A stretch of 64,000 bases of DNA from Bacteroidota bacterium (GTDB lineage Bacteria; Bacteroidota; Ignavibacteria; UBA10030; SZUA-254). Positions 52,541-64,000 of the stretch are shown in pieces. Both the position numbers and the translations under genes were made by a program. A model generated the notes under the pieces. The model was not told where the DNA came from. It saw nothing but the letters and a program-made list of their open reading frames with translations, and searched no databases. The DNA is taken from positions 36,157 through 100,156 of the forward strand of contig DATKPE010000033.1 in the NCBI GenBank assembly GCA_035524335.1, written 5' to 3'. Positions within the stretch are counted from its first letter, which is position 1. The number at the start of each line of letters is the position of its first letter.

Positions 52541-52766
52541 CTTCAGATCCCCATTTCCATATCTTCGGATAATCCCTTTCGCTGACGGCTGAATGTCCGG
52601 ACCGCTGATCGGGCCCGGGCCCCCGGATGAATGAAACTGTCGCGATTGATGTCCCGCTCCCGCAGGCCCGGGACACGGATCCGCCTCAGCGTTCCTGTTT
52701 GGCATGGCCGGCGGGGAGGGTGCATATCCACCCCCGGAACGGCCGCTCCATGCGGAGAGGAACACC

Positions 52767-55700
52767 ATGAACCGAATTTCGCAGATCCTGATCGCCCTTT
52801 CCATCGCCGGCGCAGTCGCCGCCGGTATCATTGCCGGATTCAAACCGCCGCCTGCCGAACGCGAAGATGCGACAGGCGCACTGCAGGCGCTCGATTTCTG
52901 GACACGGGCGCGGGCCTATCCACGAAACGATATTCCCCCCGGAAAATACGCGTCCGCCGTCCGGCATGTCCGTCAGACGATGAAACGGCTCCCCCCCTCG
53001 GTGAACGGAAATTCGGTCTGGACATCGATCGGTCCGATGAATCTGTCCGGCCGTGCGCTGAGCGTGGCGGTCAACCCGCAGAACAGCAGTACGGTCTATG
53101 TCGGATCCGCGAGCGGAGGCCTCTGGCGGTCATACACTGCCGGTCTTGAGGGAGACTGGCAGCGCGTCCCGACCGGATATCCGGTCCTGGGCGTTGGCGC
53201 AATCGCGTTTGTGCCCCACGATTCCACACGTATGTATATCGGAACGGGAGAGGTCTATCAGTACCGAACCGCCCTCGGAGGGTTAATCATCCGGACAACC
53301 CGTGGAAGCTATGGAATCGGCATTCTCAAATCGATCGATGGCGGGAAAAGCTGGCAGAAATCGCTCGACTGGTCGATGGATCAGGAAGCCGGGGTCGACT
53401 GCATCCGGATCAACCCGCTCAATCCCTCCACTCTTTTGGCGGGGACGAGCGAGGGGATCCTCAAATCGACCGACGCGGGGACATCCTGGACCAACGTCCT
53501 TCCGTATCAGATGGCGGAGGATATTCTCATCAATCCGCAAGACACGACAACCGCCATTGCAGTCGTCGGAAACTTCAACAGCGATTATGCCGGGCTGTAT
53601 TATTCGTTCGATGCAGGCGACGACTGGTACAACGTGCCGACCTTCCCAGCCTTTTCGGGGAAAGTGAAGCTGGAAATGTACCAGGCCTCCCCCAACGTCG
53701 TCTATGCAAGTGTTGCAGACAGCACGACGAGCGTCAGTTCGCTCTGGCGTTCGACCAATTTCGGCGCTTCGTGGCGCGAGGTGAACGGCACCGATGTCGC
53801 CGGAGTCCAGGGGTGGTATTCACACTATGTCGCAGTGCACCCGAACGATTCTTCCCAGATCATCAGGGGAGGCATTGATATTTTCAAATCGGTGACGGGC
53901 GGATCCACATTCTTCGGCGCCGCGGGCTCGTATTCGGATCATCACGGCTTCGCCCACGATCCGAACAACCCCGACATCATTTACGACGCCAACGACGACG
54001 GACTCTACCGGTCGACCGATTTCGGGGAAACCTACACCTGGGTCAGCTACGGCATGCAGACGGGACAATTTTACAACGGATTTTCCTGCTCCTCCCAGGA
54101 TTCCCTCTTTGCCATCGGCCAGGTTCAGGATCATATCCCGGGCTATTCCTATTTCGGAAGTCAGGACTGGGGCAGAACAGCCGTCGACGAATGCGGCTGG
54201 ACCGCCGCCAATCCGCTCAACGATCATCAGCTCTACGCCGTCGACAGGAACGGCGGATCGGTATACCGGTCGACCGACCGCGGGAATTTGTTTCTTCCAC
54301 TTTACGGGGATACGGAATTCGGCGCCTGGAACACTCCTGTCGCAATCGCCCCTTCCAACCCGTCAGTCCTTTACTTTGCCAAAAATTCGATTCACAAAAG
54401 CACCGACGGCGGCACAACATGGTACAATACCGGCTCGTATGTCACGAACGACGGCGATGTCGCTATTTCCATGGCAATTGCTCCAACCAGCCCCGACACC
54501 GTTTTCATCGGCAAGGCCCCGTATACCCCCGGACATGCGCATATCTACAGGACTGTGAACGGCGGCCTGTCCTGGGTCGATGTCACAGGGACTCTTCCCG
54601 ATGCATACCCGCTTGACATCGCAATCGACCCGCATCATGCATCGGTCGTTTACGCTGCCTACGGGGGATTCTTCACGGGACATATCTTCAAATCGATCAA
54701 TTGCGGCATCAGCTGGACGGACATCTCGGGATCGCTCCCCGACATTCCCGTCACCGCGATCGCGATCGATCCGCAGAATTCCTCCTACGTCTACATCGGA
54801 ACCGACGTCGGTGTGGAAGTTTCGACCGACGCCGGCGCCAGCTGGAACGATTTTTCAGAAGGACTTCCGGAAGCCATCCTCGTCTCCGACCTCGTCGTCT
54901 CCCCGAGCAACCGTATGCTGAGGGTCGTCACCCATGGGAATGGAGTATACGAACGCCCCCTGCCGGCCGTCATTCCGTTCGTGACCCTTCAGTCACCCGC
55001 CGGAGGGGAACATTGGGATGCGGTCGACGACCACCGCATCTCCTGGGATGAAGCGGGCGCACCGCTCCTCCGGCTGGAGATCTCCACCGACGGGGGATCC
55101 GGCTGGACGCTGATTGCCGACAGCGTAAACGGTTTCACGCGCTCGTATATCTGGCATACCCCCTACCTGGTAACCGATCAGGCCGTGATGAGAATCAGCG
55201 TCGACGGAAATCTCTCCGTCCACAGCCAGACGCCGGCCCCCTTTGCCCTCTATTATCACGGGGACGCCCTGCCGGTTTCGGCCGGATGGAACATGATTTC
55301 TCTTCCGGTCAATCCGAAAGACTCGGCCGCGGCAGATCTCTTCCCCGGCGCCAGCTCCCCGCTGTTTTCCTACACCGGAGGATCCGGTTACAGCTACAGC
55401 GGAACCGCTGCTCCCGGCCCGGGGTACTGGATCCGGTACGCATCGGCGCAGACCGTACTCCTCCCGGGCGACTCACTGACGATTCAACAGATCGCGGTCA
55501 CCACCGGCTGGAATCTCATCGGATCGATCGGGACTCCGATTCCGGCCGGTTCGATCGGCTCGATCCCCCCGGGGATCATCAGCGGAAATCTCTTCACCTA
55601 CAGTTCCTCCAGCGGCTACGTCATCGCCGATTCAATTACCCCCGGAAATGCATACTGGGTGAATACCACCTCTGCAGGGACGCTGACGCTTTCGACCATA

Positions 55701-56387
55701 CCGGTCCCTGCGGCGGGACGGACACCCGATGCAGAGGGAACTTCCGCACCGACAGATACAATATTCATGACCGATGATGCCGGACGGACCGGTTACCTGC
55801 TTGTCACGGACGGAGATGCGGCATCGGAGCAGAAAGAATCGGCCCTGCCGCCCGTTCCGCCCGAGGGCGCCTTCGACATCCGGTTTGCCGGCGACAGATT
55901 CCGGGCTGGTCTCTCCACTCCGGAAAACGGCATAAAGCCGATTCCACTGAGCCTTCGCGGTATCCGTTATCCGCTCCGGGTGCGATGCGGTCATTCACCC
56001 CTGTTTCCCCTCTCGATTTTTGTGAACGGAAAGGAGCGGCTTCTTCCGGCCGCGGGTGAACTCGTCGTGGCGGAACCGGGCACCGGCATCGCACTTGGAC
56101 GGAGCAGTACCTCCGGTCTGCCGGCGGCCTTCGCGCTTCACCAGAATTATCCGAATCCCTTCAATCCGTCTACCACCGTCCGGTTTGATCTCCCGGTCCA
56201 TTCCCATGTACGGCTCGATCTTTACTCGACGCTCGGTTCGTTCCTGGAGACCGTGTTCGAAGCCGATTCCCCCGCAGGAAGCAGATCCGTCGTCTGGAAC
56301 GGGGCAGGCCGCCCGAGCGGGGTCTATTTTCTCCGGATGACCGCAGGGAATTTCACCCGGACCGAGAAAATCGTCCTTCTCCGCTAA
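52767..56387 (+). CDS. secreted BNR/Asp-box repeat beta-propeller protein with C-terminal T9SS sorting domain
   Basis: SD GGAGAGG upstream, signal peptide, and more than six SxDxGxTW repeats (STDAGTSW, STNFGASW, STDGGTTW, SINCGISW, STDAGASW...). The C-terminal ~80 aa (NYPNPFNPSTTVRFDLPVHSHVRLDLY...GVYFLRMTAGNFTRTEKIVLLR) is a type-A T9SS sorting domain. Confidence 0.75.
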   Translation: MNRISQILIALSIAGAVAAGIIAGFKPPPAEREDATGALQALDFWTRARAYPRNDIPPGKYASAVRHVRQTMKRLPPSVNGNSVWTSIGPMNLSGRALSVAVNPQNSSTVYVGSASGGLWRSYTAGLEGDWQRVPTGYPVLGVGAIAFVPHDSTRMYIGTGEVYQYRTALGGLIIRTTRGSYGIGILKSIDGGKSWQKSLDWSMDQEAGVDCIRINPLNPSTLLAGTSEGILKSTDAGTSWTNVLPYQMAEDILINPQDTTTAIAVVGNFNSDYAGLYYSFDAGDDWYNVPTFPAFSGKVKLEMYQASPNVVYASVADSTTSVSSLWRSTNFGASWREVNGTDVAGVQGWYSHYVAVHPNDSSQIIRGGIDIFKSVTGGSTFFGAAGSYSDHHGFAHDPNNPDIIYDANDDGLYRSTDFGETYTWVSYGMQTGQFYNGFSCSSQDSLFAIGQVQDHIPGYSYFGSQDWGRTAVDECGWTAANPLNDHQLYAVDRNGGSVYRSTDRGNLFLPLYGDTEFGAWNTPVAIAPSNPSVLYFAKNSIHKSTDGGTTWYNTGSYVTNDGDVAISMAIAPTSPDTVFIGKAPYTPGHAHIYRTVNGGLSWVDVTGTLPDAYPLDIAIDPHHASVVYAAYGGFFTGHIFKSINCGISWTDISGSLPDIPVTAIAIDPQNSSYVYIGTDVGVEVSTDAGASWNDFSEGLPEAILVSDLVVSPSNRMLRVVTHGNGVYERPLPAVIPFVTLQSPAGGEHWDAVDDHRISWDEAGAPLLRLEISTDGGSGWTLIADSVNGFTRSYIWHTPYLVTDQAVMRISVDGNLSVHSQTPAPFALYYHGDALPVSAGWNMISLPVNPKDSAAADLFPGASSPLFSYTGGSGYSYSGTAAPGPGYWIRYASAQTVLLPGDSLTIQQIAVTTGWNLIGSIGTPIPAGSIGSIPPGIISGNLFTYSSSSGYVIADSITPGNAYWVNTTSAGTLTLSTIPVPAAGRTPDAEGTSAPTDTIFMTDDAGRTGYLLVTDGDAASEQKESALPPVPPEGAFDIRFAGDRFRAGLSTPENGIKPIPLSLRGIRYPLRVRCGHSPLFPLSIFVNGKERLLPAAGELVVAEPGTGIALGRSSTSGLPAAFALHQNYPNPFNPSTTVRFDLPVHSHVRLDLYSTLGSFLETVFEADSPAGSRSVVWNGAGRPSGVYFLRMTAGNFTRTEKIVLLR

Positions 56388-57238: not shown

Positions 57239-57312
57239 TCCGGAGAGTGATAACCCGTTGTTTCTCAACGACGCATTCCGTACATTGGGGCCAGTCCTCT
57301 CCATCTGACACC

Positions 57313-58407
57313 ATGATTCCGATTCTTCTGTTTGTCCTGATCCTCTTATACGCCGCCGAGATGGGATGGCTTTACGCCGGCATCCAGCGGGCGGGCCGCT
57401 GTCGGCGGGTCGAAGATTACGAACCGGCGGTTTCGGTGATCGTCGCAGCCCGGAACGAGGAGGAATATATCGCCGGCTGTCTCCGGTCGCTTCTGAAGCT
57501 CGAATACCCCCGCGAAAAGCTGGAAATCATCATTGTCAATGACAGCTCCACCGACCGGACGGGCGAAATACTCTCCGGATTCCCTCCCGACCCGAGGATC
57601 AGGATATTGCAGACCACTCCCGGAAGCGGCAACCTGCACGGCAAGGCGAATGCGCTTGCCGCGGGGATCCGGGGCTCGCACGGTGAAATCATCATGCTGA
57701 CGGATGCCGACTGTACCGTCCGGCCCGGGTGGGTGCGGGAGACGGTCAAATATTTCACCCCCGGCACCGGAATCGTGGGCGGGTTCACGGTGCTGGAGGG
57801 ATCGGGGGCATTCAGCGGGATCCAGGCGCTCGACTGGTTCTTTCTCTTCAATGTCGCCGCAGGGACGGCGGGGTGGCGCTACCCGCTGACGGTCATCGGC
57901 AATAATTTCGCAGTGCGGCGCGAGGCGTATGAGGCCGCGGGAGGATATGAAGCGATCCCGTTCAGCGTGACGGAGGATTACGCACTGGTGCGGTCGATCG
58001 TGCGGACCGGCAGATTCGGCGTGGAGTTTCCGCGCGACGCCGGGTGCAGTGTGGAAAGCCGGCCCTGCAGAAATGCCGGACATCTTTTCCGGCAGAAACA
58101 ACGCTGGGGTGTCGGCGGACTCGACATGATTCTCGGGGGGATGCTCATCATGGCGGTCAGCTGGTGTACGCGGGTCATGGTGATCGCGGCGCTTCTGTAT
58201 ATGCCGCTGACGGCCGGGCTCGTTTCCGCCGCGCTTCTCTGCGTGACGGATCTCTGTTTCCTGACCGGGACCGCCCGGCGGTTCGGCGCGGCGCGGCGGC
58301 TCGGGTATTTTCCGCTCTTCGAACTCTATCTCACCTTCTACGCTCTCCTGATCCCCTTCGTAGCGCTCTTCAGCAGGAAGATCATCTGGAAACACCGCAG
58401 TCTGTAA
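57313..58407 (+). CDS. family 2 glycosyltransferase (membrane-anchored)
   Basis: N-terminal TM. SVIVAARNEE...IIVNDSSTD...LTDADC gives the GT2 DxD context. C-terminal TM helices. Start at MIPILLF (57313). Confidence 0.7.
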   Translation: MIPILLFVLILLYAAEMGWLYAGIQRAGRCRRVEDYEPAVSVIVAARNEEEYIAGCLRSLLKLEYPREKLEIIIVNDSSTDRTGEILSGFPPDPRIRILQTTPGSGNLHGKANALAAGIRGSHGEIIMLTDADCTVRPGWVRETVKYFTPGTGIVGGFTVLEGSGAFSGIQALDWFFLFNVAAGTAGWRYPLTVIGNNFAVRREAYEAAGGYEAIPFSVTEDYALVRSIVRTGRFGVEFPRDAGCSVESRPCRNAGHLFRQKQRWGVGGLDMILGGMLIMAVSWCTRVMVIAALLYMPLTAGLVSAALLCVTDLCFLTGTARRFGAARRLGYFPLFELYLTFYALLIPFVALFSRKIIWKHRSL

Positions 58408-58413
58408 ACGAAA

Positions 58414-58446
58414 AACCCCCGAACCGCGGGGAGCGGAACGGGGGTT
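58414..58446. terminator. GC-rich hairpin between convergent genes; candidate bidirectional intrinsic terminator
   Basis: AAAAA-AACCCCCG-(loop)-CGGGGGTT-AT. The A5 tract reads as U5 for the minus-strand regulator gene, and TT follows on the plus strand. Confidence 0.45.
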
Positions 58447-58473: not shown

Positions 58474-59502
58474 TCAGGCGCGCGAGCGCGAGCTGGCGAT
58501 ATTGAGGCGTTTCAGCTTGTACCGGAGGGTCTGCTCGGTCATGCCGAGGAAACCGGCCGCCTTCGACTGGTTGAACCCGAATTTCTGCAGTGCCCGTTCG
58601 ATGATCCCCTTCTCGATCGCATCGAGAGACTTGTCCAGAATGAAATCCTGCCCGTTCTGGATGTTGTTGATCATCTTCACGACCTCGGTCTTTTCGTCGA
58701 CGAGTTCGGGCGGGAGCATGAACCGGCCGCCGTTGGAGAAGAGGACCGATTTATCGATGACCGCCTTCAGCTCGCGGATATTCTCCCGCCAGCTCTGGCG
58801 GACGAGGACGTCGATGGCGTTGATATCGATGACCAGTTCCCCGATGCCGATTTCGTGGCAGAGTTCGTTGGCGAAATGTTTCACGAGGAGCGGGATATCC
58901 TCGGGGCGTTCGCGGAGCGGCGGAATTTCGAGCCGTTCGAAGTCGCTCAGCTTGGTGAACAGTTCCTCGAGCAGTTTCCGTTTATCCACGAGCGACCGGG
59001 GGTCCTCCTTCAGGGTAAAGATCAGGCGGATATCGATCGGTTCGGACTGGGAACCGCCGATGCGGCTCGTGAGCCGTTCATTCAGGAAGGTGAGGATCTT
59101 CATCTGATTACGGAAGCTGGCTTCCTCGACCTCCTCGATGAGGACGGTCCCGCCGTTGGCGATTTCGAAGAGGCCCCGTTTGGTGGTATAGGGAAGTCCT
59201 TCCGCGCCGCGGTCAAATCCGAAGAGAACCGCTTCGAGCTCCTTATCATCGAGGACGGAGAGGTTGATCGACATGAACGGCGATTTCGACCCCTCGACGG
59301 CGCCGAGAGAGTAGATGTTTTTGGCGACGGCGCCCTTCCCGACGCCGGCCTCGCCGACGATGACCACGTCGTTGCGGTTTTTTGCAAGTCTGCCGATCTG
59401 TTTCAGCAGCTGCTCGACGGCCCGGCTCTTGCCGATAATCGGGTATTCCATCGATCCGCCCTTCGCTTCATCGGGTGATTTTACCTTCTTGTCTTTATCC
59501 AT
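58474..59502 (-). CDS. sigma-54-activator-family (bEBP-like) AAA+ ATPase with Fis-type HTH, lacking an N-terminal sensory/receiver domain
   Basis: Walker A VGEAGVGKGAVAKN and a Walker B-like GGTVLIEEVEEA (EE where DE is usual). The GAFTGA region reads FGFDRGAEGLPYTTKRGLFEIANGG. R-finger/sensor II region present. C-terminal HTH AAGFLGMTEQTLRYKLKRL. Start set at MDKDKK (59502). Confidence 0.7.
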   Translation of the reverse strand: MDKDKKVKSPDEAKGGSMEYPIIGKSRAVEQLLKQIGRLAKNRNDVVIVGEAGVGKGAVAKNIYSLGAVEGSKSPFMSINLSVLDDKELEAVLFGFDRGAEGLPYTTKRGLFEIANGGTVLIEEVEEASFRNQMKILTFLNERLTSRIGGSQSEPIDIRLIFTLKEDPRSLVDKRKLLEELFTKLSDFERLEIPPLRERPEDIPLLVKHFANELCHEIGIGELVIDINAIDVLVRQSWRENIRELKAVIDKSVLFSNGGRFMLPPELVDEKTEVVKMINNIQNGQDFILDKSLDAIEKGIIERALQKFGFNQSKAAGFLGMTEQTLRYKLKRLNIASSRSRA

Positions 59503-59540: not shown

Positions 59541-60668
59541 TTACTTGCCCTGTGAATTCTGGAACAGGCGCCCGTTGAAAAGCTTGAAATTGAAGAACCG
59601 CTCCAGGATGAGGTTGTCGACCCAATCCCGCCAGCGGCTGATCGTCTGCGGGTTGCTCGCCAGTTCCAGCTCGTAGAATTCGCCCTGCACCGAGGTAATG
59701 AACCGCAGACGGAGGACGAAGAACCAGACGATGAAGAACTCGACGAAAATCGTGACGTACTGGGAGACGGCGAACAGATCGGCGAATGAGGAAAATTCGA
59801 CGCTGTGGCTGAACCCCCAGTTATGGAGGATCTCCATCGACGAGAGGAGGAGGAACAGGAACATGATCTTGTCGATATACGCCCCCTGGGGCGGATCCTT
59901 CTTGAACTGGTAAAGGAAAAACAGCAGTATGAAGACGATGAAGAAGACGTTCATGTAGACGATGCTCATGTTCATCGGCTTCCAGAGCAGGATGATGTAG
60001 TTGTTGCCCGCAAGGTACGGCATCAGATATTCGATACGGCGGATATTCTGATCCGGGTAAAGATCGCCGACGGCGCGTCCGTCTTCCCACGACTGCAGTT
60101 TGACGGATCCGGCAAGCTGGATGGCCGAAGGGGTTTCCTTCGCGGGATCGACCGCCTGGTAGAGCGTCTTGAACTGCTTGATGTCCTGCGTCGAGTAGAG
60201 ATACAGCGGATCATGAAAATACGGCTGGAAGATCATCCAGCTGACGATGACCGAAAGGGCGATTGCGGCGAGATATTTCTGATAGATCCTCAGCTCGCGG
60301 AATATCTGATCGATCACGATGTAGCAGATGGCGAGCGACATGAAAACCTGGAATCCGATCAGGGTATACTGGTGCAGAATGTGGGTGGCGAATTTGTTCT
60401 CGGTGAAGATCGACACGCCGACGAAATCGAAGAAATAATGGCTGACCGAGACGGTGAACAGGAAGATAAAATTCAGGAAGATGAATTTATTTTTCGGATT
60501 CGGCTCACTGCGGTAAATCAAAACGGACAGAATGAGAAGCAGAATCTGAATAGCCCTGTTGAAAACGCCTTCGAGGTCGATCGGGTGGTGTGGAAACAGC
60601 ACCAGGGCCACGCAATAAACTGCGTGAAAAACAAGTAGAAAGAAAAATGCTTTGACAAGATTTTTCAT
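59541..60668 (-). CDS. hypothetical polytopic membrane protein (about 8 TM), first gene of the operon with the bEBP-like regulator
   Basis: 375 aa with hydrophobic helices throughout. Begins directly at an AT-rich promoter region and ends 38 nt upstream of the regulator gene. Its antisense ORF (59805..60638) is the acidic mirror translation. Confidence 0.55.
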   Translation of the reverse strand: MKNLVKAFFFLLVFHAVYCVALVLFPHHPIDLEGVFNRAIQILLLILSVLIYRSEPNPKNKFIFLNFIFLFTVSVSHYFFDFVGVSIFTENKFATHILHQYTLIGFQVFMSLAICYIVIDQIFRELRIYQKYLAAIALSVIVSWMIFQPYFHDPLYLYSTQDIKQFKTLYQAVDPAKETPSAIQLAGSVKLQSWEDGRAVGDLYPDQNIRRIEYLMPYLAGNNYIILLWKPMNMSIVYMNVFFIVFILLFFLYQFKKDPPQGAYIDKIMFLFLLLSSMEILHNWGFSHSVEFSSFADLFAVSQYVTIFVEFFIVWFFVLRLRFITSVQGEFYELELASNPQTISRWRDWVDNLILERFFNFKLFNGRLFQNSQGK

Positions 60669-60954
60669 AAGTAAAGACCGGGTACGAAGTCCGATCCCTC
60701 GTTTTGTTTAAATTTATCGCTTTTTTGAACAAATGTCAATAGCATTCGCAATTTTTTTTCTATATGCTCAAATCTGTGATTCGCAACACGCCATAATATT
60801 CGTGATATTTTTTCAGAATAAAATAGCAAAATTCTTGCGAATTTTCACATAATATCGTAACTTGTCCTTGGAGTTTTTCCCCTCATTACCCCTTTAATGC
60901 GAATATACAAAAATATTTTTCATAATCAATTAATTAAATCCGAGGAGAGTTACC
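60669..60954. promoter_or_regulatory. AT-rich divergent intergenic region with repeated octamer ATTCGCAA / TTGCGAAT
   Basis: 286 bp, visibly AT-rich. ATTCGCAA at 60744-60751 and 60779-60786, inverted TTGCGAAT at 60835-60842, and a 7/8 inverted copy ATGCGAAT at 60897-60904. SD-like GGAGAG precedes the downstream small ORF. Confidence 0.45.
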
Positions 60955-61197
60955 ATGACTGCCATCACACGTCGTAATGCAAAGCGGATCGGATCCCTTC
61001 TGATCGCTTTACTGATCGTTCTTGTGACCAATATCGCCATCTCCCTGGCCGATAACGCACGCACGCTCGATCCGAACAATCCGATCTACGGTTCGCCCCG
61101 TCCCAAGACGCTCGATCCGAATAATCCGATCTATGGCTCGCCCCGTCCCAAGACGCTCGATCCGAACAATCCGATCTACGGTTCACCGCGCCCGTAA
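60955..61197 (+). CDS. small (80 aa) signal-peptide/membrane-anchor protein with three tandem copies of TLDPNNPIYGSPRP separated by Lys
   Basis: GGAGAG 7 nt upstream of ATG. N-region RRNAKR, hydrophobic IGSLLIALLIVLVTNIAISLA, then DNAR-TLDPNNPIYGSPRP-K-TLDPNNPIYGSPRP-K-TLDPNNPIYGSPRP-stop. All inter-repeat nucleotide differences are synonymous. Confidence 0.55.
   Translation: MTAITRRNAKRIGSLLIALLIVLVTNIAISLADNARTLDPNNPIYGSPRPKTLDPNNPIYGSPRPKTLDPNNPIYGSPRP
61063..61197 (+). repeat. 3 x 45-bp tandem coding repeat inside the small ORF
   Basis: Copies at 61063-61107, 61108-61152 and 61153-61197. They differ only at third codon positions: aac/aat, tac/tat, ggt/ggc, tcg/tca, ccc/ccg, cgt/cgc, ccc/ccg. 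Confidence 0.9.
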
Positions 61198-61245
61198 GGC
61201 ACGGCCCGCGGCATTTGCCGCGCGTTCGGTAACTCCATAATTGAT

Positions 61246-61287
61246 ACACCCCGCCTGCGGTCCGCCGCGGACGGGGTGTTTTTTTTC
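61246..61287 (+). terminator. strong Rho-independent terminator downstream of the repeat-peptide ORF
   Basis: ACACCCCG - loop containing the nested TCCGC/GCGGA pair - CGGGGTGT, followed by T8 (TTTTTTTT). Confidence 0.7.
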
Positions 61288-61345
61288 CCGGGACTCCGAT
61301 TACCATTTCTCGTGATTTTTTTTTATTTTTCCCTGAAATACCTCC

Positions 61346-62347
61346 ATGGAGCCCGTCTACCCATCAGATCCGACCACTTTCAGCTGGCAGGGACAACCAC
61401 CCCCGCCTCCACGGCCATGGAAATCGTACCTCTTCCATGCGTCGCTCTTCCTTCTGACGTTCATCACCACAACACTCGCGGGCGTCCTATGGCTCCTGAA
61501 AGACCCGTTTGAACTGTCCAATTTCCCTGCGGGATTTCCCTATTCCCTCAGTCTCCTGGCAATCCTCACGGCCCACGAATTCGGGCATTACTTTGCGGCG
61601 CGACGCTACCATATTCCGACCACCCTCCCCTACTTCATCCCGATGCCGCCGTTTCTCATCAACCTTTTCGGCACCATGGGGGCGGTGATCAGGATCAGGG
61701 GGGCGATCGGAACCAGAAAACAGCTCTTCGACATCGGCGCCGCCGGACCGATCGCGGGTCTTATCGTTACCCTGGGTGTCCTCGCCCTCGGCATGGCGAC
61801 GCTTCCCCCGATCAGCTATCTGTACGGAATACATCCCGAATATATCGGCCTTTCTGCAATCCCCAACGGAGGGCTGACCTTCGGCTCCTCTCTCTTCTTC
61901 CGCGGGTTTCTCCGCCTGTTCGCACACGGCCGGTTTATTCCCCCCATGAATGAAATTTACCATTATCCCTATCTCTGCGTCGGCTGGTTCGGCCTGTTCA
62001 TCACCGCGATGAACCTGATCCCCGTCGGCCAGCTGGATGGCGGCCATATCCTCTATTCCATGGTCGGACGCCGGCAGGGGCTGATCGCGAAAATCTGCTT
62101 CGGCATACTCATCCTGATCGGCCTCGTGGCGTTCATTCCCGCATTCGGTTCCCATATTCAGCTGGGGACCCTCGGCTGGCTCATTTTCGCCGTCATCCTG
62201 TTTTTCGTCATCAAGCTCAATCACCCCGAAATCCACGATCCGGAACCTCTCGACTCATCGCGAACCTTCCTCGGATGGATTCTCATGGCCCTCTTCATCC
62301 TCATTTTCACCCCGGTGCCGTTCTATGAAATCTCCCCGGCACCTTGA
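61346..62347 (+). CDS. site-2 protease family (peptidase M50) intramembrane zinc metalloprotease, no PDZ domain
   Basis: HExxH inside a TM helix (LAILTAHEFGHYFAARRY) and the second S2P motif NLIPVGQLDGGHIL. Multiple TM helices. Confidence 0.8.
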   Translation: MEPVYPSDPTTFSWQGQPPPPPRPWKSYLFHASLFLLTFITTTLAGVLWLLKDPFELSNFPAGFPYSLSLLAILTAHEFGHYFAARRYHIPTTLPYFIPMPPFLINLFGTMGAVIRIRGAIGTRKQLFDIGAAGPIAGLIVTLGVLALGMATLPPISYLYGIHPEYIGLSAIPNGGLTFGSSLFFRGFLRLFAHGRFIPPMNEIYHYPYLCVGWFGLFITAMNLIPVGQLDGGHILYSMVGRRQGLIAKICFGILILIGLVAFIPAFGSHIQLGTLGWLIFAVILFFVIKLNHPEIHDPEPLDSSRTFLGWILMALFILIFTPVPFYEISPAP

Positions 62348-62471
62348 CTTTCAACGACGATTTTCGTAGATTTTCAATACTCAATAACTTTCCCGGACGC
62401 ATTATCTGCCCCATGGTATAGAGTTTGACCCGACGATCCCGTCACGTTTTTGAAAGGGCAGGTCTATTTCG

Positions 62472-63353
62472 ATGCGTCGCACCATTTCCACCGTTCTGAT
62501 CCCCCGGGTGTTCCGGACGATATCCCCATACCGCCGGATTCTTCCTGTCGTCATACTTGTGGTCGCGGGACTGGCAGGCTGCCGGCGCGAGTATTCCGGT
62601 ACGCTCGACCCGCCCCTCACCGCGCCGTATCTGTATCAGGCGCAGATCGGGGTCTCGCTCGTCGATCTCGATACCTCCTCCGCATCCGTCGTAAAACAGA
62701 TTTCGCCCGGGACCTACGAGATCACCGATTCTCTTTCCGCCGTGGTGCTCGATCCGGTGAGCGGAGACGATATCACCTCCTGCACCTACAGCGTCACGTC
62801 GCCGGGCATCTCGACGCCTTTTCTCACAGGGAACCTGAACCGGATCTCGGTGTCGTCCAATCAGGCGAATTTCAGCACGAAGTTTGCCTTCCTCGTCCGG
62901 CGCGACCAGATAGGTCCGTACATTATCGAAATCGACGCCTCAGGGCAGGCAGGGTATGTCGCGAATGCCCGACGGGTCACCCTCTCTATTATCAGAAACG
63001 ACGCCCGGCCGGTCATCTCGAATCTCCTCGCACCCGACACCCTGGTCCGGCCGCAATCCGGTTCCCGGATGGTCCGTCTCGCCATTTCGGCCTCCGATTC
63101 GGACGGCCTCGGCGACATCGTCAAAGTTTTCTTCCGGAGCATCAACTCCACCTCCCCCGATTTTGAACAACCGATGTTCGACGACGGGAATCTGGCGGTG
63201 GACGGTGATTCCGTTGCGGGCGACGGCCGCTATGCCAGACTTCTGCCGCTCGATTCAACGGCCACGGCGGGAATCAAGGAATTTCGCTTTTTCGCGCGCG
63301 ACAAAGCGGGAGCGGTGAGCGATTCAATCGTCCATTATATCGTCATCCAATGA
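62472..63353 (+). CDS. hypothetical lipoprotein (beta-rich)
   Basis: Lipobox VVAGLAGC after a hydrophobic stretch. Ser/Thr/Val-rich beta-strand-like composition. Its stop overlaps the start of the next gene (ATGA). Confidence 0.5.
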   Translation: MRRTISTVLIPRVFRTISPYRRILPVVILVVAGLAGCRREYSGTLDPPLTAPYLYQAQIGVSLVDLDTSSASVVKQISPGTYEITDSLSAVVLDPVSGDDITSCTYSVTSPGISTPFLTGNLNRISVSSNQANFSTKFAFLVRRDQIGPYIIEIDASGQAGYVANARRVTLSIIRNDARPVISNLLAPDTLVRPQSGSRMVRLAISASDSDGLGDIVKVFFRSINSTSPDFEQPMFDDGNLAVDGDSVAGDGRYARLLPLDSTATAGIKEFRFFARDKAGAVSDSIVHYIVIQ

Positions 63354-64000
63354 TCAGCCGCACCGGACTCCATATCGTCCTCGCTCTCCTCGTGGCATTC
63401 GGGCTCCATTCACGGTCCTCGGGACAATCCAGATACCTCCGTCATTTTTCCCCCTATACGAGTGAGGGCTCGGCGATTCCCCCGAGCAACAACATCTCCC
63501 ATGCCGCCGTCTCCGGCGGGATCCTCTGGTTCGGAACCAGCAAGGGCCTCACCCGTTCCATGGACACGGGAAAAACGTGGACCTCCTTCAGGTCAAATCC
63601 GGCCTTCGCCAACGACGGCATCTATGCCACCGATGCCGCCGACTCGATCGTCTGGGCCGCCACGGGATATGACAAGGATATGGGAGACGGCTCCACGGTG
63701 CAGACCGGGAGCGGGTATGCCTTCAGCACAAACGGCGGCGCGACATGGACCCACAGGGGGCAGGCGCTCGACGGCCTCCACGACACGCTGATCGCCTACG
63801 GGATCAACGATTCGCTGAGGATTCTTCCGGTGGTCGTTCCGGAACAGAACGTCACCTTCGATATCTCGCTTCAGGGGCGCAATGTCTGGATCGCCAGCTG
63901 GGCCAGCGGTCTCCGCCGCTCGTCCGACAACGGCGCGACGTGGCAGAGAATCCTTCTCCCGTCCGATATCCAGAGCACGCTGTCACCGACCGACACTCTC
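63350..64000 (+). CDS. BNR/Asp-box repeat protein, 3' end outside the window
   Basis: Frame open to the window end and not listed in the track because it has no stop. Signal peptide-like start MISRTGLHIVLALLVAFGL. Repeats SMDTGKTW, STNGGATW, SSDNGATW. Confidence 0.6.
   Translation, partial: MISRTGLHIVLALLVAFGLHSRSSGQSRYLRHFSPYTSEGSAIPPSNNISHAAVSGGILWFGTSKGLTRSMDTGKTWTSFRSNPAFANDGIYATDAADSIVWAATGYDKDMGDGSTVQTGSGYAFSTNGGATWTHRGQALDGLHDTLIAYGINDSLRILPVVVPEQNVTFDISLQGRNVWIASWASGLRRSSDNGATWQRILLPSDIQSTLSPTDTL

Follow-up and report, generated by a model that had tools for sequence, protein, structure and literature searches.

Homology to EBPs, combined with a lost or altered GAFTGA motif and often with non-consensus Walker motifs, defines the atypical EBPs (PMC6158489). 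Those without GAFTGA and a canonical Walker B, for example VpsR, TyrR, HupR, PhhR, NtrX and the NtrC of R. capsulatus, act at sigma-70 promoters (PMC6158489; bioRxiv 10.1101/2023.06.06.543975). The set considered here, comprising V. cholerae VpsR, E. coli TyrR, P. putida PhhR, R. capsulatus HupR and NtrC, Brucella and Caulobacter NtrX and Caulobacter NtrC, shares an NtrC-type AAA+ domain, a Fis HTH and the loss or alteration of GAFTGA, with a non-consensus Walker B in several members such as VpsR. These proteins work at sigma-70-type promoters, ATP, where it is used, is bound rather than hydrolysed, and all of them carry an N-terminal sensor (REC or ACT/PAS). To our knowledge, sigma-54-independent EBPs have been recognised only as a handful of Proteobacterial regulators, each of which has its own sensor domain. 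A different solution is found in PspF and HrpR/S, which consist of AAA+ and HTH domains without an N-terminal regulatory domain, and whose input comes from a separately encoded partner, PspA(BC) and HrpV respectively, which is membrane-associated in the Psp system. A third comparison is offered by the pheromone circuits of Enterococcus and Streptococcus, which bring together a small secreted peptide, an M50 (Eep/RseP-type) protease and a regulator.

The locus described here lies in a stretch of 64,000 nt, hereafter the window, of a Bacteroidota bacterium (UBA10030; SZUA-254; assembly GCA_035524335.1, contig DATKPE010000033.1, positions 36,157-100,156 of the forward strand); the positions below are those of the window. 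Its regulator, which we name REG (58474-59502, minus strand), is a 342-aa bEBP-family protein with an AAA+ domain, a lid and a Fis-type HTH, as assigned from Pfam, NCBIfam, PDB alignments and the lengths of its homologues. The membrane protein gene upstream is named MEM, and two further neighbours M50 and GT2. We lean towards the view that REG is an independently derived, sigma-54-independent and hydrolysis-deficient atypical EBP, whose sensory input would be provided in trans by MEM. REG displays the EBP homology, the altered GAFTGA and the non-consensus Walker B by which atypical EBPs are recognised. In contrast to the described members, it has no N-terminal sensor; its GAFTGA shows a residue-for-residue replacement and no deletion; it also lacks the sensor I Asn and both arginine fingers; and a polytopic membrane protein is linked to it. 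PspF and HrpR/S have the same sensor-less architecture as REG, but they have kept GAFTGA, the DE of Walker B and the arginine fingers, and are strictly sigma-54-dependent ATPases.

The reading frame of REG extends mechanically to a TTG at 59625. The ATG at 59502, with the stop at 58474, is nevertheless the preferred start, since the homologues measure 325-350 aa (almost all 339-345), MxKxKK is the common N-terminal start of REG and its homologues, and a GAGGA Shine-Dalgarno sequence lies 5 nt ahead of this ATG. On the 3' side of the gene, a terminator-like hairpin is followed by a T-run (58416-58432, minus strand; dG about -9.7 kcal/mol). The Pfam domain Sigma54_activat (PF00158) covers residues 22-188 (E 4e-36; profile positions 1-165 of 168; 124.6 bits against a cut-off of 20.2), followed by AAA_lid_14 at residues 197-260 and by the Fis-type HTH_8 at residues 293-333 (58504-58626, minus strand). 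Upstream of residue 22 no Pfam domain was found, and the homologues are likewise short, in agreement with the preliminary description, according to which the protein starts directly with the AAA+ domain and has no REC, GAF or PAS module. All NCBIfam equivalog scores are far under their cut-offs (TyrR 144.6 against 576, NtrX 171.5 against 600, PspF 173 against 443.55), so that REG is no orthologue of any named bEBP. Among its PDB matches, which include PspF structures, the canonical NifA (phmmer E 5e-41) ranks above VpsR (E 2e-25), and the structures of VpsR, NtrX and LuxO are less similar to REG than those of the canonical NifA and NtrC1. With an alignment of 16 sequences, AF2 gave a poor model of REG (pLDDT 52), which was left unused. 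The databases label the REG family as sigma-54-dependent. PexR appeared relevant by title and was set aside as a relative, being a canonical, GAF-containing sigma-54 activator.

The central observation is the simultaneous alteration of four elements of the AAA+ domain, as established by phmmer alignment of REG with the NifA, NtrC1 and ZraR structures, which is ungapped across the motifs. Where GAFTGA would contact sigma-54, REG has an L1 loop reading GAEGLP (G99-P104; 59191-59208, minus strand), in which both the Phe and the Thr are substituted. None of the six translated frames of the window contains a GAFTGA-like string at a shifted place. In the Walker B (59131-59145, minus strand), VLIEE followed by VEE places Glu123 where the canonical Asp would stand, with GGTVLIEEVEE of REG opposite GGTLFLDEIGE of the solved bEBPs. 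The two substitutions on which the preliminary description was built, a replaced GAFTGA and a Walker B reading IEEVEE where DE is usual, are thus confirmed at the aligned sites. Three changes go beyond that list. Sensor I has Leu164-Lys165 for the canonical Thr-Asn ('TLK' for 'ATN'; 59008-59013, minus strand), with the Asn replaced by Lys165; the arginine-finger region reads LEELFTK (58951-58971, minus strand), both Arg of FRxDLYYRL being replaced, by Leu178 and Lys184; and one extra residue is inserted ahead of PPLRER. Other elements are kept, namely the Walker A GEAGVGKG with the P-loop Lys56 (59332-59355, minus strand), the second Walker B Glu124, the sensor II Arg243 (ENIRELK) and the pre-sensor I 'RIGG' region. 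Nearly all of the best 120 homologues have a GxEGLP-like loop and a Walker B of the form hhhEE(I/V/L)EE, so that, at the level of sequence, the substitutions are conserved rather than due to chance. The replacement of the L1 contact loop and of three catalytic features (Walker B Asp, sensor I Asn, both arginine fingers), conserved as it is, provides good support for sigma-54 independence and impaired ATP hydrolysis, both of which we infer for REG. The exchange of Asp for Glu in the Walker B is conservative and may not, by itself, fully abolish hydrolysis. It is most likely that REG binds ATP without hydrolysing it.

MEM (59541-60668, minus strand) encodes an uncharacterised 375-aa polytopic membrane protein with eight predicted helices. 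The gene has the same orientation as REG and lies 38 nt upstream of it, no terminator having been found between the two genes in the window. It directly precedes REG in every locus with enough flank; over 73 loci this order and a short gap (median 49 nt, range -16 to 106 nt) are invariant, whereas the other neighbours vary. The protein has an outside insert of about 65 aa (around residues 155-222) and a conserved cytoplasmic C-terminal tail of about 50 aa, which is its most conserved part and carries no catalytic signature. No Pfam domain characterises the MEM homologues (272-429 aa in all), although weak matches to 7TMR-DISM_7TM were obtained in 4 of 42 members, the MEM of the window not being among them, and weak matches to PAP2_3 in 3 of 42. 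In one source, a MEM orthologue bears the label 'predicted neutral ceramidase superfamily lipid hydrolase'. The AF2 model of MEM is confident (pLDDT 84); among known structures it is matched best by GPCR-type 7TM domains, the Foldseek scores being non-significant (E >= 0.1, TM-score 0.3-0.38). The predicted fold of MEM is a helical bundle of GPCR-like appearance. MEM differs from 7TMR-DISM proteins by its eight predicted helices, by the absence of an extracellular DISMED domain, and by an output domain that is not fused to it but encoded by a separate downstream gene. Beyond the transmembrane core, the tail of MEM co-varies with REG (partial Mantel r=0.45, p=0.0005), a signal that is inseparable from phylogeny. 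The coupling does not extend to the wider REG family, since P0241, the nearest sensor-less outgroup regulator (52% identity), has no adjoining MEM gene; it is equally absent from the more distant sensor-less relative P0275.

On the other side of MEM, a 286-nt spacer separates the operon from a divergent gene encoding a secreted tandem-repeat peptide (60955-61197, plus strand), which has a signal peptide and three copies of TLDPNNPIYGSPRPK, the repeat unit in this genome being TLDPNNPIYGSPRP(K). The divergent position of this gene, pointed out from the outset, is kept in 49 loci that possess a counterpart, and the precursors contain 2-6 copies of a Pro-rich unit of about 13 aa with the consensus KSGVxxxPDxPRP. 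A strong intrinsic terminator (61246-61287, plus strand; dG -26.4 kcal/mol, then T8) lies 3' of the peptide gene, and further downstream is found M50, a membrane metalloprotease of the site-2 protease family (61346-62347, plus strand; Pfam E 1.5e-17). Convergent with REG is GT2, a Glyco_transf_21-type membrane glycosyltransferase (57313-58407, plus strand; start as called in L001; mechanically, the ORF begins at 57247). M50 and GT2 are syntenic in most loci, and a similar GT2 is also found near P0241. Closed genomes with the module include OY970334.1 (4.2 Mb) and the 3.75-Mb contig CAVZWW010000003.1. The association of a secreted peptide gene with an M50 protease and a regulator recalls the pheromone circuits of Enterococcus and Streptococcus. 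Those circuits, however, belong to another phylum and use RRNPP/Rgg regulators rather than a bEBP-like one, and their peptides are unlike the tandem 13-aa Pro-rich repeats of the REG locus.

The spacer contains two promoters of primary-sigma type. That of the MEM-REG operon is sigma-70-like, TTGACA-17-TAAATT (60711-60739, minus strand), and that of the repeat-peptide gene is a Bacteroidota-style sigma-A promoter, TTG-N20-TAACTTGT (60835-60865, plus strand). Under looser criteria, 42 of the 47 related loci have a TTG(ACA)-N20-TAnnTTT promoter in matching register; a stricter scan of these loci missed the copy of the window. By contrast, the best matches to a -24/-12 element (GG-N10-GC) in the 47 orthologous intergenic regions are no better than those in shuffles, in a scan that presumes the targets of REG to be the adjacent genes. 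These promoters are consistent with an action of REG at primary-sigma promoters. Neither an RpoN box nor a GAFTGA was found when the window and the flanks of 85 loci were translated in six frames, a result that says little on whole genomes. In the literature, nothing usable on rpoN or sigma-54 in Ignavibacterium or Ignavibacteria was found, and the Chlorobi and Bacteroidetes are not mentioned by name in Francke et al. 2011. Two kinds of motif within the spacer are candidate operators. The palindrome GTGATTCGCAACAC (60776-60789), of GTGA-N6-TCAC type, has its midpoint about 114 nt upstream of the start codon of MEM. Allowing one mismatch at most, 38 of the 47 distinct intergenic regions contain a palindrome of this type, where shuffles give 4.2 +/- 2.0; the distance from its centre to the MEM start is 98-117 nt in 32 of these 38 regions (full range 79-210). 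As its layout is that of a CRP/FNR box (TGTGA-N6-TCACA), it could serve as the site of a different regulator. Alternative candidate half-sites are provided by three TTGCGAA/TTCGCAA motifs (60745-51, 60780-86 and 60835-41), the last of which overlaps the -33 element of the peptide promoter. Three of the seven copies of this motif in the 64-kb window fall within the 286-nt spacer; in the intergenic regions TTGCGAA is found 20 times against 1.6 expected (12-fold), and TGCGA 62 times against 20.6. None of the spacer motifs near REG resembles the operator sequences of VpsR.

We propose that REG, which keeps its Fis-type HTH, would behave as a conventional DNA-binding regulator at sigma-A-type promoters, either as an activator or as a repressor. 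Its most probable targets would be the two divergent promoters of the spacer 5' of its own operon. Action at the MEM-REG promoter would amount to autoregulation, and action at the peptide promoter could control the secreted repeat peptide and, by read-through, the M50 protease and the envelope operon. Because REG has no sensor domain, we propose that its activity is set in trans by MEM. The likely contact would be the conserved cytoplasmic tail, and MEM might act by sequestering and releasing REG or by controlling its oligomerisation. In its logic, such a control would resemble that of PspF by PspA; PspA and HrpV are nevertheless unrelated to MEM, and the gating of REG by MEM, already suggested in the preliminary description, is proposed from their invariant operon linkage only.

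Several other readings of REG were weighed. The degeneracy of several canonical motifs might denote a non-functional bEBP in decay. REG orthologues, however, are present in at least 145 Ignavibacteria-like species genomes with 67-86% identity to the protein of the window, the frame is intact, and the altered residues are themselves invariant. As REG is also the best conserved gene of its own neighbourhood (median identity to the window protein 75%, against 53% for M50, 43% for GT2 and 42% for MEM), a decaying remnant is vanishingly improbable and was rejected. REG could also have remained a sigma-54 activator, with a lineage-specific GxEGLP loop matched to a co-evolved sigma-54, and with Glu123/Glu124 and the Lys184 finger supporting hydrolysis. 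Several points would fit this proposal: the database annotation, the AAA+ fold signature kept together with 'RIGG', the Lys of Walker A and the Arg of sensor II, and the chemically conservative exchanges of Asp for Glu and of Arg for Lys. We consider it improbable, as four independent catalytic or coupling elements are altered together and conserved in this state, with both the Phe and the Thr of GAFTGA gone, while the adjacent promoters are of sigma-A type with -24/-12 matches at the level of shuffles, and characterised proteins with comparable losses work at sigma-70 promoters. The loss of the hydrolysis residues in an AAA+ fold that is still competent for oligomerisation would equally suit a pseudo-ATPase anti-activator, a dead subunit poisoning or modulating the rings of canonical bEBPs encoded elsewhere. 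Mixed rings are indeed known for HrpR/HrpS. Yet the linker and the HTH of REG are nearly invariant among homologues, and this HTH, together with the operator-like motifs adjoining the gene, argues for sequence-specific DNA binding by REG itself; moreover, no canonical bEBP gene is linked to REG in any locus examined. A role of this kind seems to us very improbable. The initial suggestion of a regulator that is sigma-54-independent or impaired in its ATPase, comparable to the TyrR and HupR type, is well supported by the sequence, in which the contact loop and the catalytic residues are replaced and conserved as such beside sigma-A-type promoters, in agreement with the atypical EBPs of PMC6158489.

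The role of MEM leaves more room for discussion. REG could be an atypical, sigma-A-dependent regulator for which MEM is not the sensor; MEM would then be a protein of the envelope that is regulated together with it, for instance a transporter, a lipid enzyme or a structural component. Control of REG by a nucleotide or small ligand in the degenerate AAA+ pocket, or by its level of expression, may be envisaged in that case. The nearest outgroup regulator P0241 lives without a MEM neighbour, the ceramidase-type label and the weak PAP2_3 matches point to lipid chemistry, a lipid-type GT2 is tightly linked as well, and the retained Walker A and sensor II leave the nucleotide pocket as a possible sensor, as in TyrR and the NtrC of R. 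capsulatus. Against this stand the MEM-REG order and gap, invariant in the 73 loci where other neighbours vary, the conservation of a cytoplasmic tail without catalytic signature as the foremost feature of MEM, and a predicted fold whose matches, non-significant as they are (Foldseek E >= 0.1), are receptors and not enzymes. We regard a MEM that is no sensor as possible, if doubtful. A bolder hypothesis, which we find rather unlikely, would unite the peptide precursor, a GPCR-like MEM of 7/8 TM and an ATPase-dead REG in an undescribed autocrine or quorum-type circuit. The processed peptide would be sensed by MEM, whose tail would directly hold or release REG, and REG would in turn control the peptide gene and the M50/envelope operon. 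No co-variation was detected between the peptide unit and the outside loop of MEM (partial Mantel r -0.29), the Mantel signals being confounded by phylogeny. If this circuit were real, a bacterial 7TM receptor would be coupled directly to an AAA+ transcription factor, and not to a kinase or cyclase.

To return to the reading that we favour, REG represents an independent lineage of atypical EBPs in Ignavibacteria-like Bacteroidota, sensor-less, with its nucleotide pocket kept, and co-operonic with the receptor-like MEM. The arrangement of MEM, peptide gene and REG suggests an undescribed signalling module. If the coupling between MEM and REG is real, it would constitute a new route from a membrane signal to a transcription factor, and a clean natural case in which an AAA+ motor has become a switch. 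At the level of the family, the databases contain hundreds of entries annotated as 'sigma-54-dependent Fis family transcriptional regulator' or 'NtrC family response regulator', and it is probable that these proteins do not depend on sigma-54 and are not response regulators either.

The gene of REG, a regulator of the bEBP family (bacterial enhancer-binding proteins), is real and runs on the minus strand from an ATG at 59502 to a stop at 58474 (342 aa). The longest mechanical reading frame reaches a TTG at 59625, upstream of this ATG; a ribosome-binding site, GAGGA, precedes the ATG by 5 nt, and the homologues, which measure 325-350 aa (almost all 339-345), share a Lys/Glu-rich MxKxKK start. 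A Pfam search identified Sigma54_activat (residues 22-188, E 4e-36), AAA_lid_14 (197-260) and HTH_8 (293-333) and no domain N-terminal to residue 22, so that the sensor-less architecture proposed in the preliminary description holds. In NCBIfam, REG matches many named bEBPs, each far under its equivalog cut-off (PspF 173 vs 443, TyrR 145 vs 576, NtrX 171 vs 600), and it is therefore considered a member of the family that is orthologous to no named one.

The catalytic motifs were read from phmmer alignments to the solved structures of NifA, NtrC1 and ZraR, which are ungapped across the catalytic core; aligning REG jointly with canonical bEBPs led to the same assignments. The L1 loop GAFTGA is replaced by G99-AEGL-P104, and the Walker B motif GGTLFLDEIGE by GGTVLIEEVEE, in which Asp has become Glu123 and Glu124 is kept. 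The degeneracy of these two motifs had thus been correctly described, but its extent was understated, the sensor I Asn and the two arginine fingers having been lost as well: AATN reads FTLK (Thr to Leu164, Asn to Lys165) and FRxDLYYRL reads LLEELFTKL (Arg to Leu178, Arg to Lys184). A one-residue insertion precedes PPLRER, while Lys56 of the P-loop (GEAGVGKG) and Arg243 of sensor II (ENIRELK) are kept. An intact but shifted GAFTGA is excluded, as a search of all reading frames in the window found no GAFTGA-like string.

These substitutions are shared by the homologues. The best 120 retrieved from a 5.8-billion-protein database are 73-100% identical to REG and nearly equal in length, and carry GxEGLP-type loops and an hhhEE(I/V/L)EE Walker B. 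When one genome per species was scanned, 145 species genomes proved to carry an orthologue. Of these, 80 were retrieved; each comes from a MAG with the label Ignavibacteria, Ignavibacteriota, Bacteroidota or 'Chlorobiaceae' and is 67-86% identical to the window protein. The whole ortholog group forms a single cluster at the 50%-identity level, outside which lie further sensor-less proteins (300-347 aa, 35-52% identical), also without GAFTGA and a DE Walker B. REG is the slowest-evolving gene of its neighbourhood, with a median identity to the window protein across related loci of 75%, against 53% for an M50 protease, 43% for a GT2 glycosyltransferase, 42% for MEM, the membrane protein encoded upstream, and 31% for a 293-aa unknown. 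The HTH and the linker joining it to the lid are almost invariant among orthologues. This linker (residues ~260-291; 58630-58725, minus strand; FMLPPELVDEKTEVVKMINNI..GQDF.LDK) is almost invariant family-wide. Such constancy is unusual for a linker in bEBPs and suggests an additional surface for interaction or dimerisation.

MEM (59541-60668, minus strand) is a 375-aa polytopic membrane protein whose gene is co-oriented with that of REG and ends 38 nt before it, with no terminator between them in the window. An orthologue lies immediately upstream of REG in every related locus with enough flank (median gap 49 nt, range -16 to 106, n=73); the two genes form a conserved operon. MEM matches no Pfam or NCBIfam family, and its 378 detectable homologues (272-429 aa) are all annotated as 'hypothetical'. 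A confident AF2 model (pLDDT 84, pTM 0.81, from a 42-sequence alignment) shows eight long helices, with ~65 residues inserted between the fifth and the sixth, followed at the C-terminus by two short ones. The positive-inside rule would place the N-terminus, the C-tail and the invariant KKDPPQGAYIDK loop in the cytoplasm and the insert outside. Conservation within MEM is highest in the tail, …RLRFITSVQGEFYExELAxNPxxxSRWRDWVDN…FFNFKxFNGRLFQ, and the protein can be called 'receptor-like' with moderate confidence only.

The preliminary description had placed the operon divergently to a repeat-peptide gene. This arrangement is borne out: the peptide gene (60955-61197, plus strand) lies between MEM and the M50 gene, and an equivalent is found in 49 loci. 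The precursor consists of a signal peptide, conserved at its '...TNIAISYA' end, and then 2-6 near-identical tandem units, mostly of 13 aa (consensus KSGVxxxPDxPRP across the 49 loci), which are near-identical inside one genome and differ from genome to genome; the C-terminus is nearly always PRP or PKP. Its organisation resembles that of a multi-copy precursor for a short secreted peptide. The window gene has 3 copies of a 15-aa unit, TLDPNNPIYGSPRPK, and two other assemblies of the same organism have 4 (L001, 8260-8547, and L002), reflecting either copy-number variation or assembly collapse. A very stable intrinsic terminator before the M50 gene (61246-61287, plus strand; dG -26.4 kcal/mol, then T8) suggests that the peptide gene would be its own strongly expressed unit, with read-through only into the downstream operon.

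The 286-nt spacer separating MEM from the peptide gene contains a sigma-A-type promoter towards each. The MEM-ward one is TTGACA-17-TAAATT (60739-60711, minus strand), and the peptide-gene promoter is TTG-N20-TAACTTGT (60835-60865, plus strand). TTG(ACA)-N20-TAnnTTT, the Bacteroidota-style form of primary-sigma promoters, occurs in the same register in 42/47 orthologous spacers under looser criteria, a stricter scan having overlooked the window copy. The spacers also conserve two classes of operator-like element, either of which may be bound by REG. A GTGA-N6-TCAC palindrome with at most 1 mismatch, shaped like a CRP/FNR box (window copy 60776-60789), occurs in 38/47 distinct spacers against 4.2 +/- 2.0 in shuffles. 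The second class is made up of TGCGA, with 62 occurrences where 20.6 are expected, and TTGCGAA, with 20 where 1.6 are expected. Because of the phylogenetic relatedness of the spacers, none of these counts represents independent events. In 32/38 spacers the centre of the palindrome falls 98-117 nt upstream of MEM's start codon (range 79-210), at a variable distance from the peptide gene (123 to 425 nt). Its location, ~80 bp upstream of where MEM transcription starts, would suit activation of class-I type or autoregulation. Three of the 7 TTGCGAA copies of the 64-kb window fall within the spacer, and in many genomes the TGCGA/TTGCGAA motifs overlap the peptide promoter at its -33 element or flank its -7 element; such an overlap fits either repression or class-II activation. 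Across the window, the palindrome (again with at most 1 mismatch) occurs 38 times against 20.1 +/- 4.4 in dinucleotide shuffles, mostly inside coding sequence, an excess that may stem from the structure of codons or composition and not from binding sites. GC content is 0.51 at 60001-62000, spanning the MEM gene and the AT-rich spacer, and ~0.59 elsewhere.

Two further linkages recur in most loci. Upstream, a divergent operon with a cell-envelope theme (61346-64000, plus strand; L001 2078-8111) follows the peptide gene and includes the M50 metalloprotease, the 293-aa unknown, a 541-aa BNR/sortilin-like protein, a 324-aa unknown, a 303-aa UPF0164/DUF5723-like (outer-membrane-type) protein and a DsbH-type thioredoxin; its genes are possible REG targets. 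Downstream and convergent lies a Glyco_transf_21-type GT2 (57313-58407, plus strand) with weak HpnI/HpnB similarity. The nearest sensor-less outgroup regulator, P0241 (52% identity), adjoins clustered genes for a radical-SAM enzyme, a polysaccharide deacetylase, a GT2 and a GT28. As a similar GT2 is present there, the GT2 linkage may be older than the MEM linkage; the radical-SAM, deacetylase and GT2 genes of this locus (L086, 11605-14341) recall hpnJ-hpnK-hpnI. P0241 has no MEM gene at its locus, and the MEM coupling is therefore specific to the REG ortholog group. A 1227-aa BNR/sortilin-like protein (52704-56387, plus strand) bears a C-terminal T9SS-type sorting tail (…NYPNPFNPSTTVRFDL…), which fits a Bacteroidota/Ignavibacteria origin of the window.

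In REG, the sigma-54 contact loop and four hydrolysis elements are lost, and this loss is conserved, with the nucleotide-binding elements and the HTH retained. What GAFTGA, Walker B, sensor I and the arginine fingers do in bEBPs is established, and on this basis REG would be unable to remodel the sigma-54 holoenzyme and would probably lack ATP hydrolysis. ATP binding may still drive its oligomerisation, as reported for R. capsulatus NtrC (bioRxiv 10.1101/2023.06.06.543975). We propose from the genomic context that REG would regulate the divergent promoter pair of the spacer, and that its missing sensory input may be supplied by MEM via the cytoplasmic tail. REG and the MEM tail co-vary weakly (partial Mantel r 0.45, p 0.0005), and the peptide and the MEM outside loop not at all in the same kind of test, both comparisons being confounded by phylogeny.

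Four rival explanations have to be weighed. Decay into a pseudogene would account for lost motifs, and is rejected since the substitutions are themselves conserved and no gene of the neighbourhood evolves more slowly. REG could also, with low probability, retain residual sigma-54 dependence; the best matches to the -24/-12 consensus in the spacers do not beat shuffled spacers. It might instead, again with low probability, act as a dominant-negative subunit of a ring, its AAA+ fold being retained and its hydrolysis elements lost. The serious rival is that MEM is co-regulated with REG but non-signalling. Of the interpretation first offered for REG, sigma-54 independence and ATPase impairment have a strong, sequence-based case, while gating by the membrane protein is circumstantial.

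REG would work most like the atypical EBPs VpsR, TyrR, PhhR, HupR, NtrX and the NtrC of R. capsulatus and Caulobacter (PMC6158489; bioRxiv 10.1101/2023.06.06.543975), although it is orthologous to none of them and lacks the N-terminal sensor that is a feature of theirs. It shares its architecture with PspF and HrpR/S, regulators that likewise have no sensor domain and are controlled in trans, but appears to fail their defining sigma-54 and ATPase features. Our searches of open-access literature brought up no sensor-less atypical EBP with a polytopic membrane protein as its partner. The REG family represents widespread, very conserved and mis-annotated regulators; together with MEM it would constitute a plausible new membrane-to-transcription coupling, and the module offers a testable link to a secreted repeat peptide.
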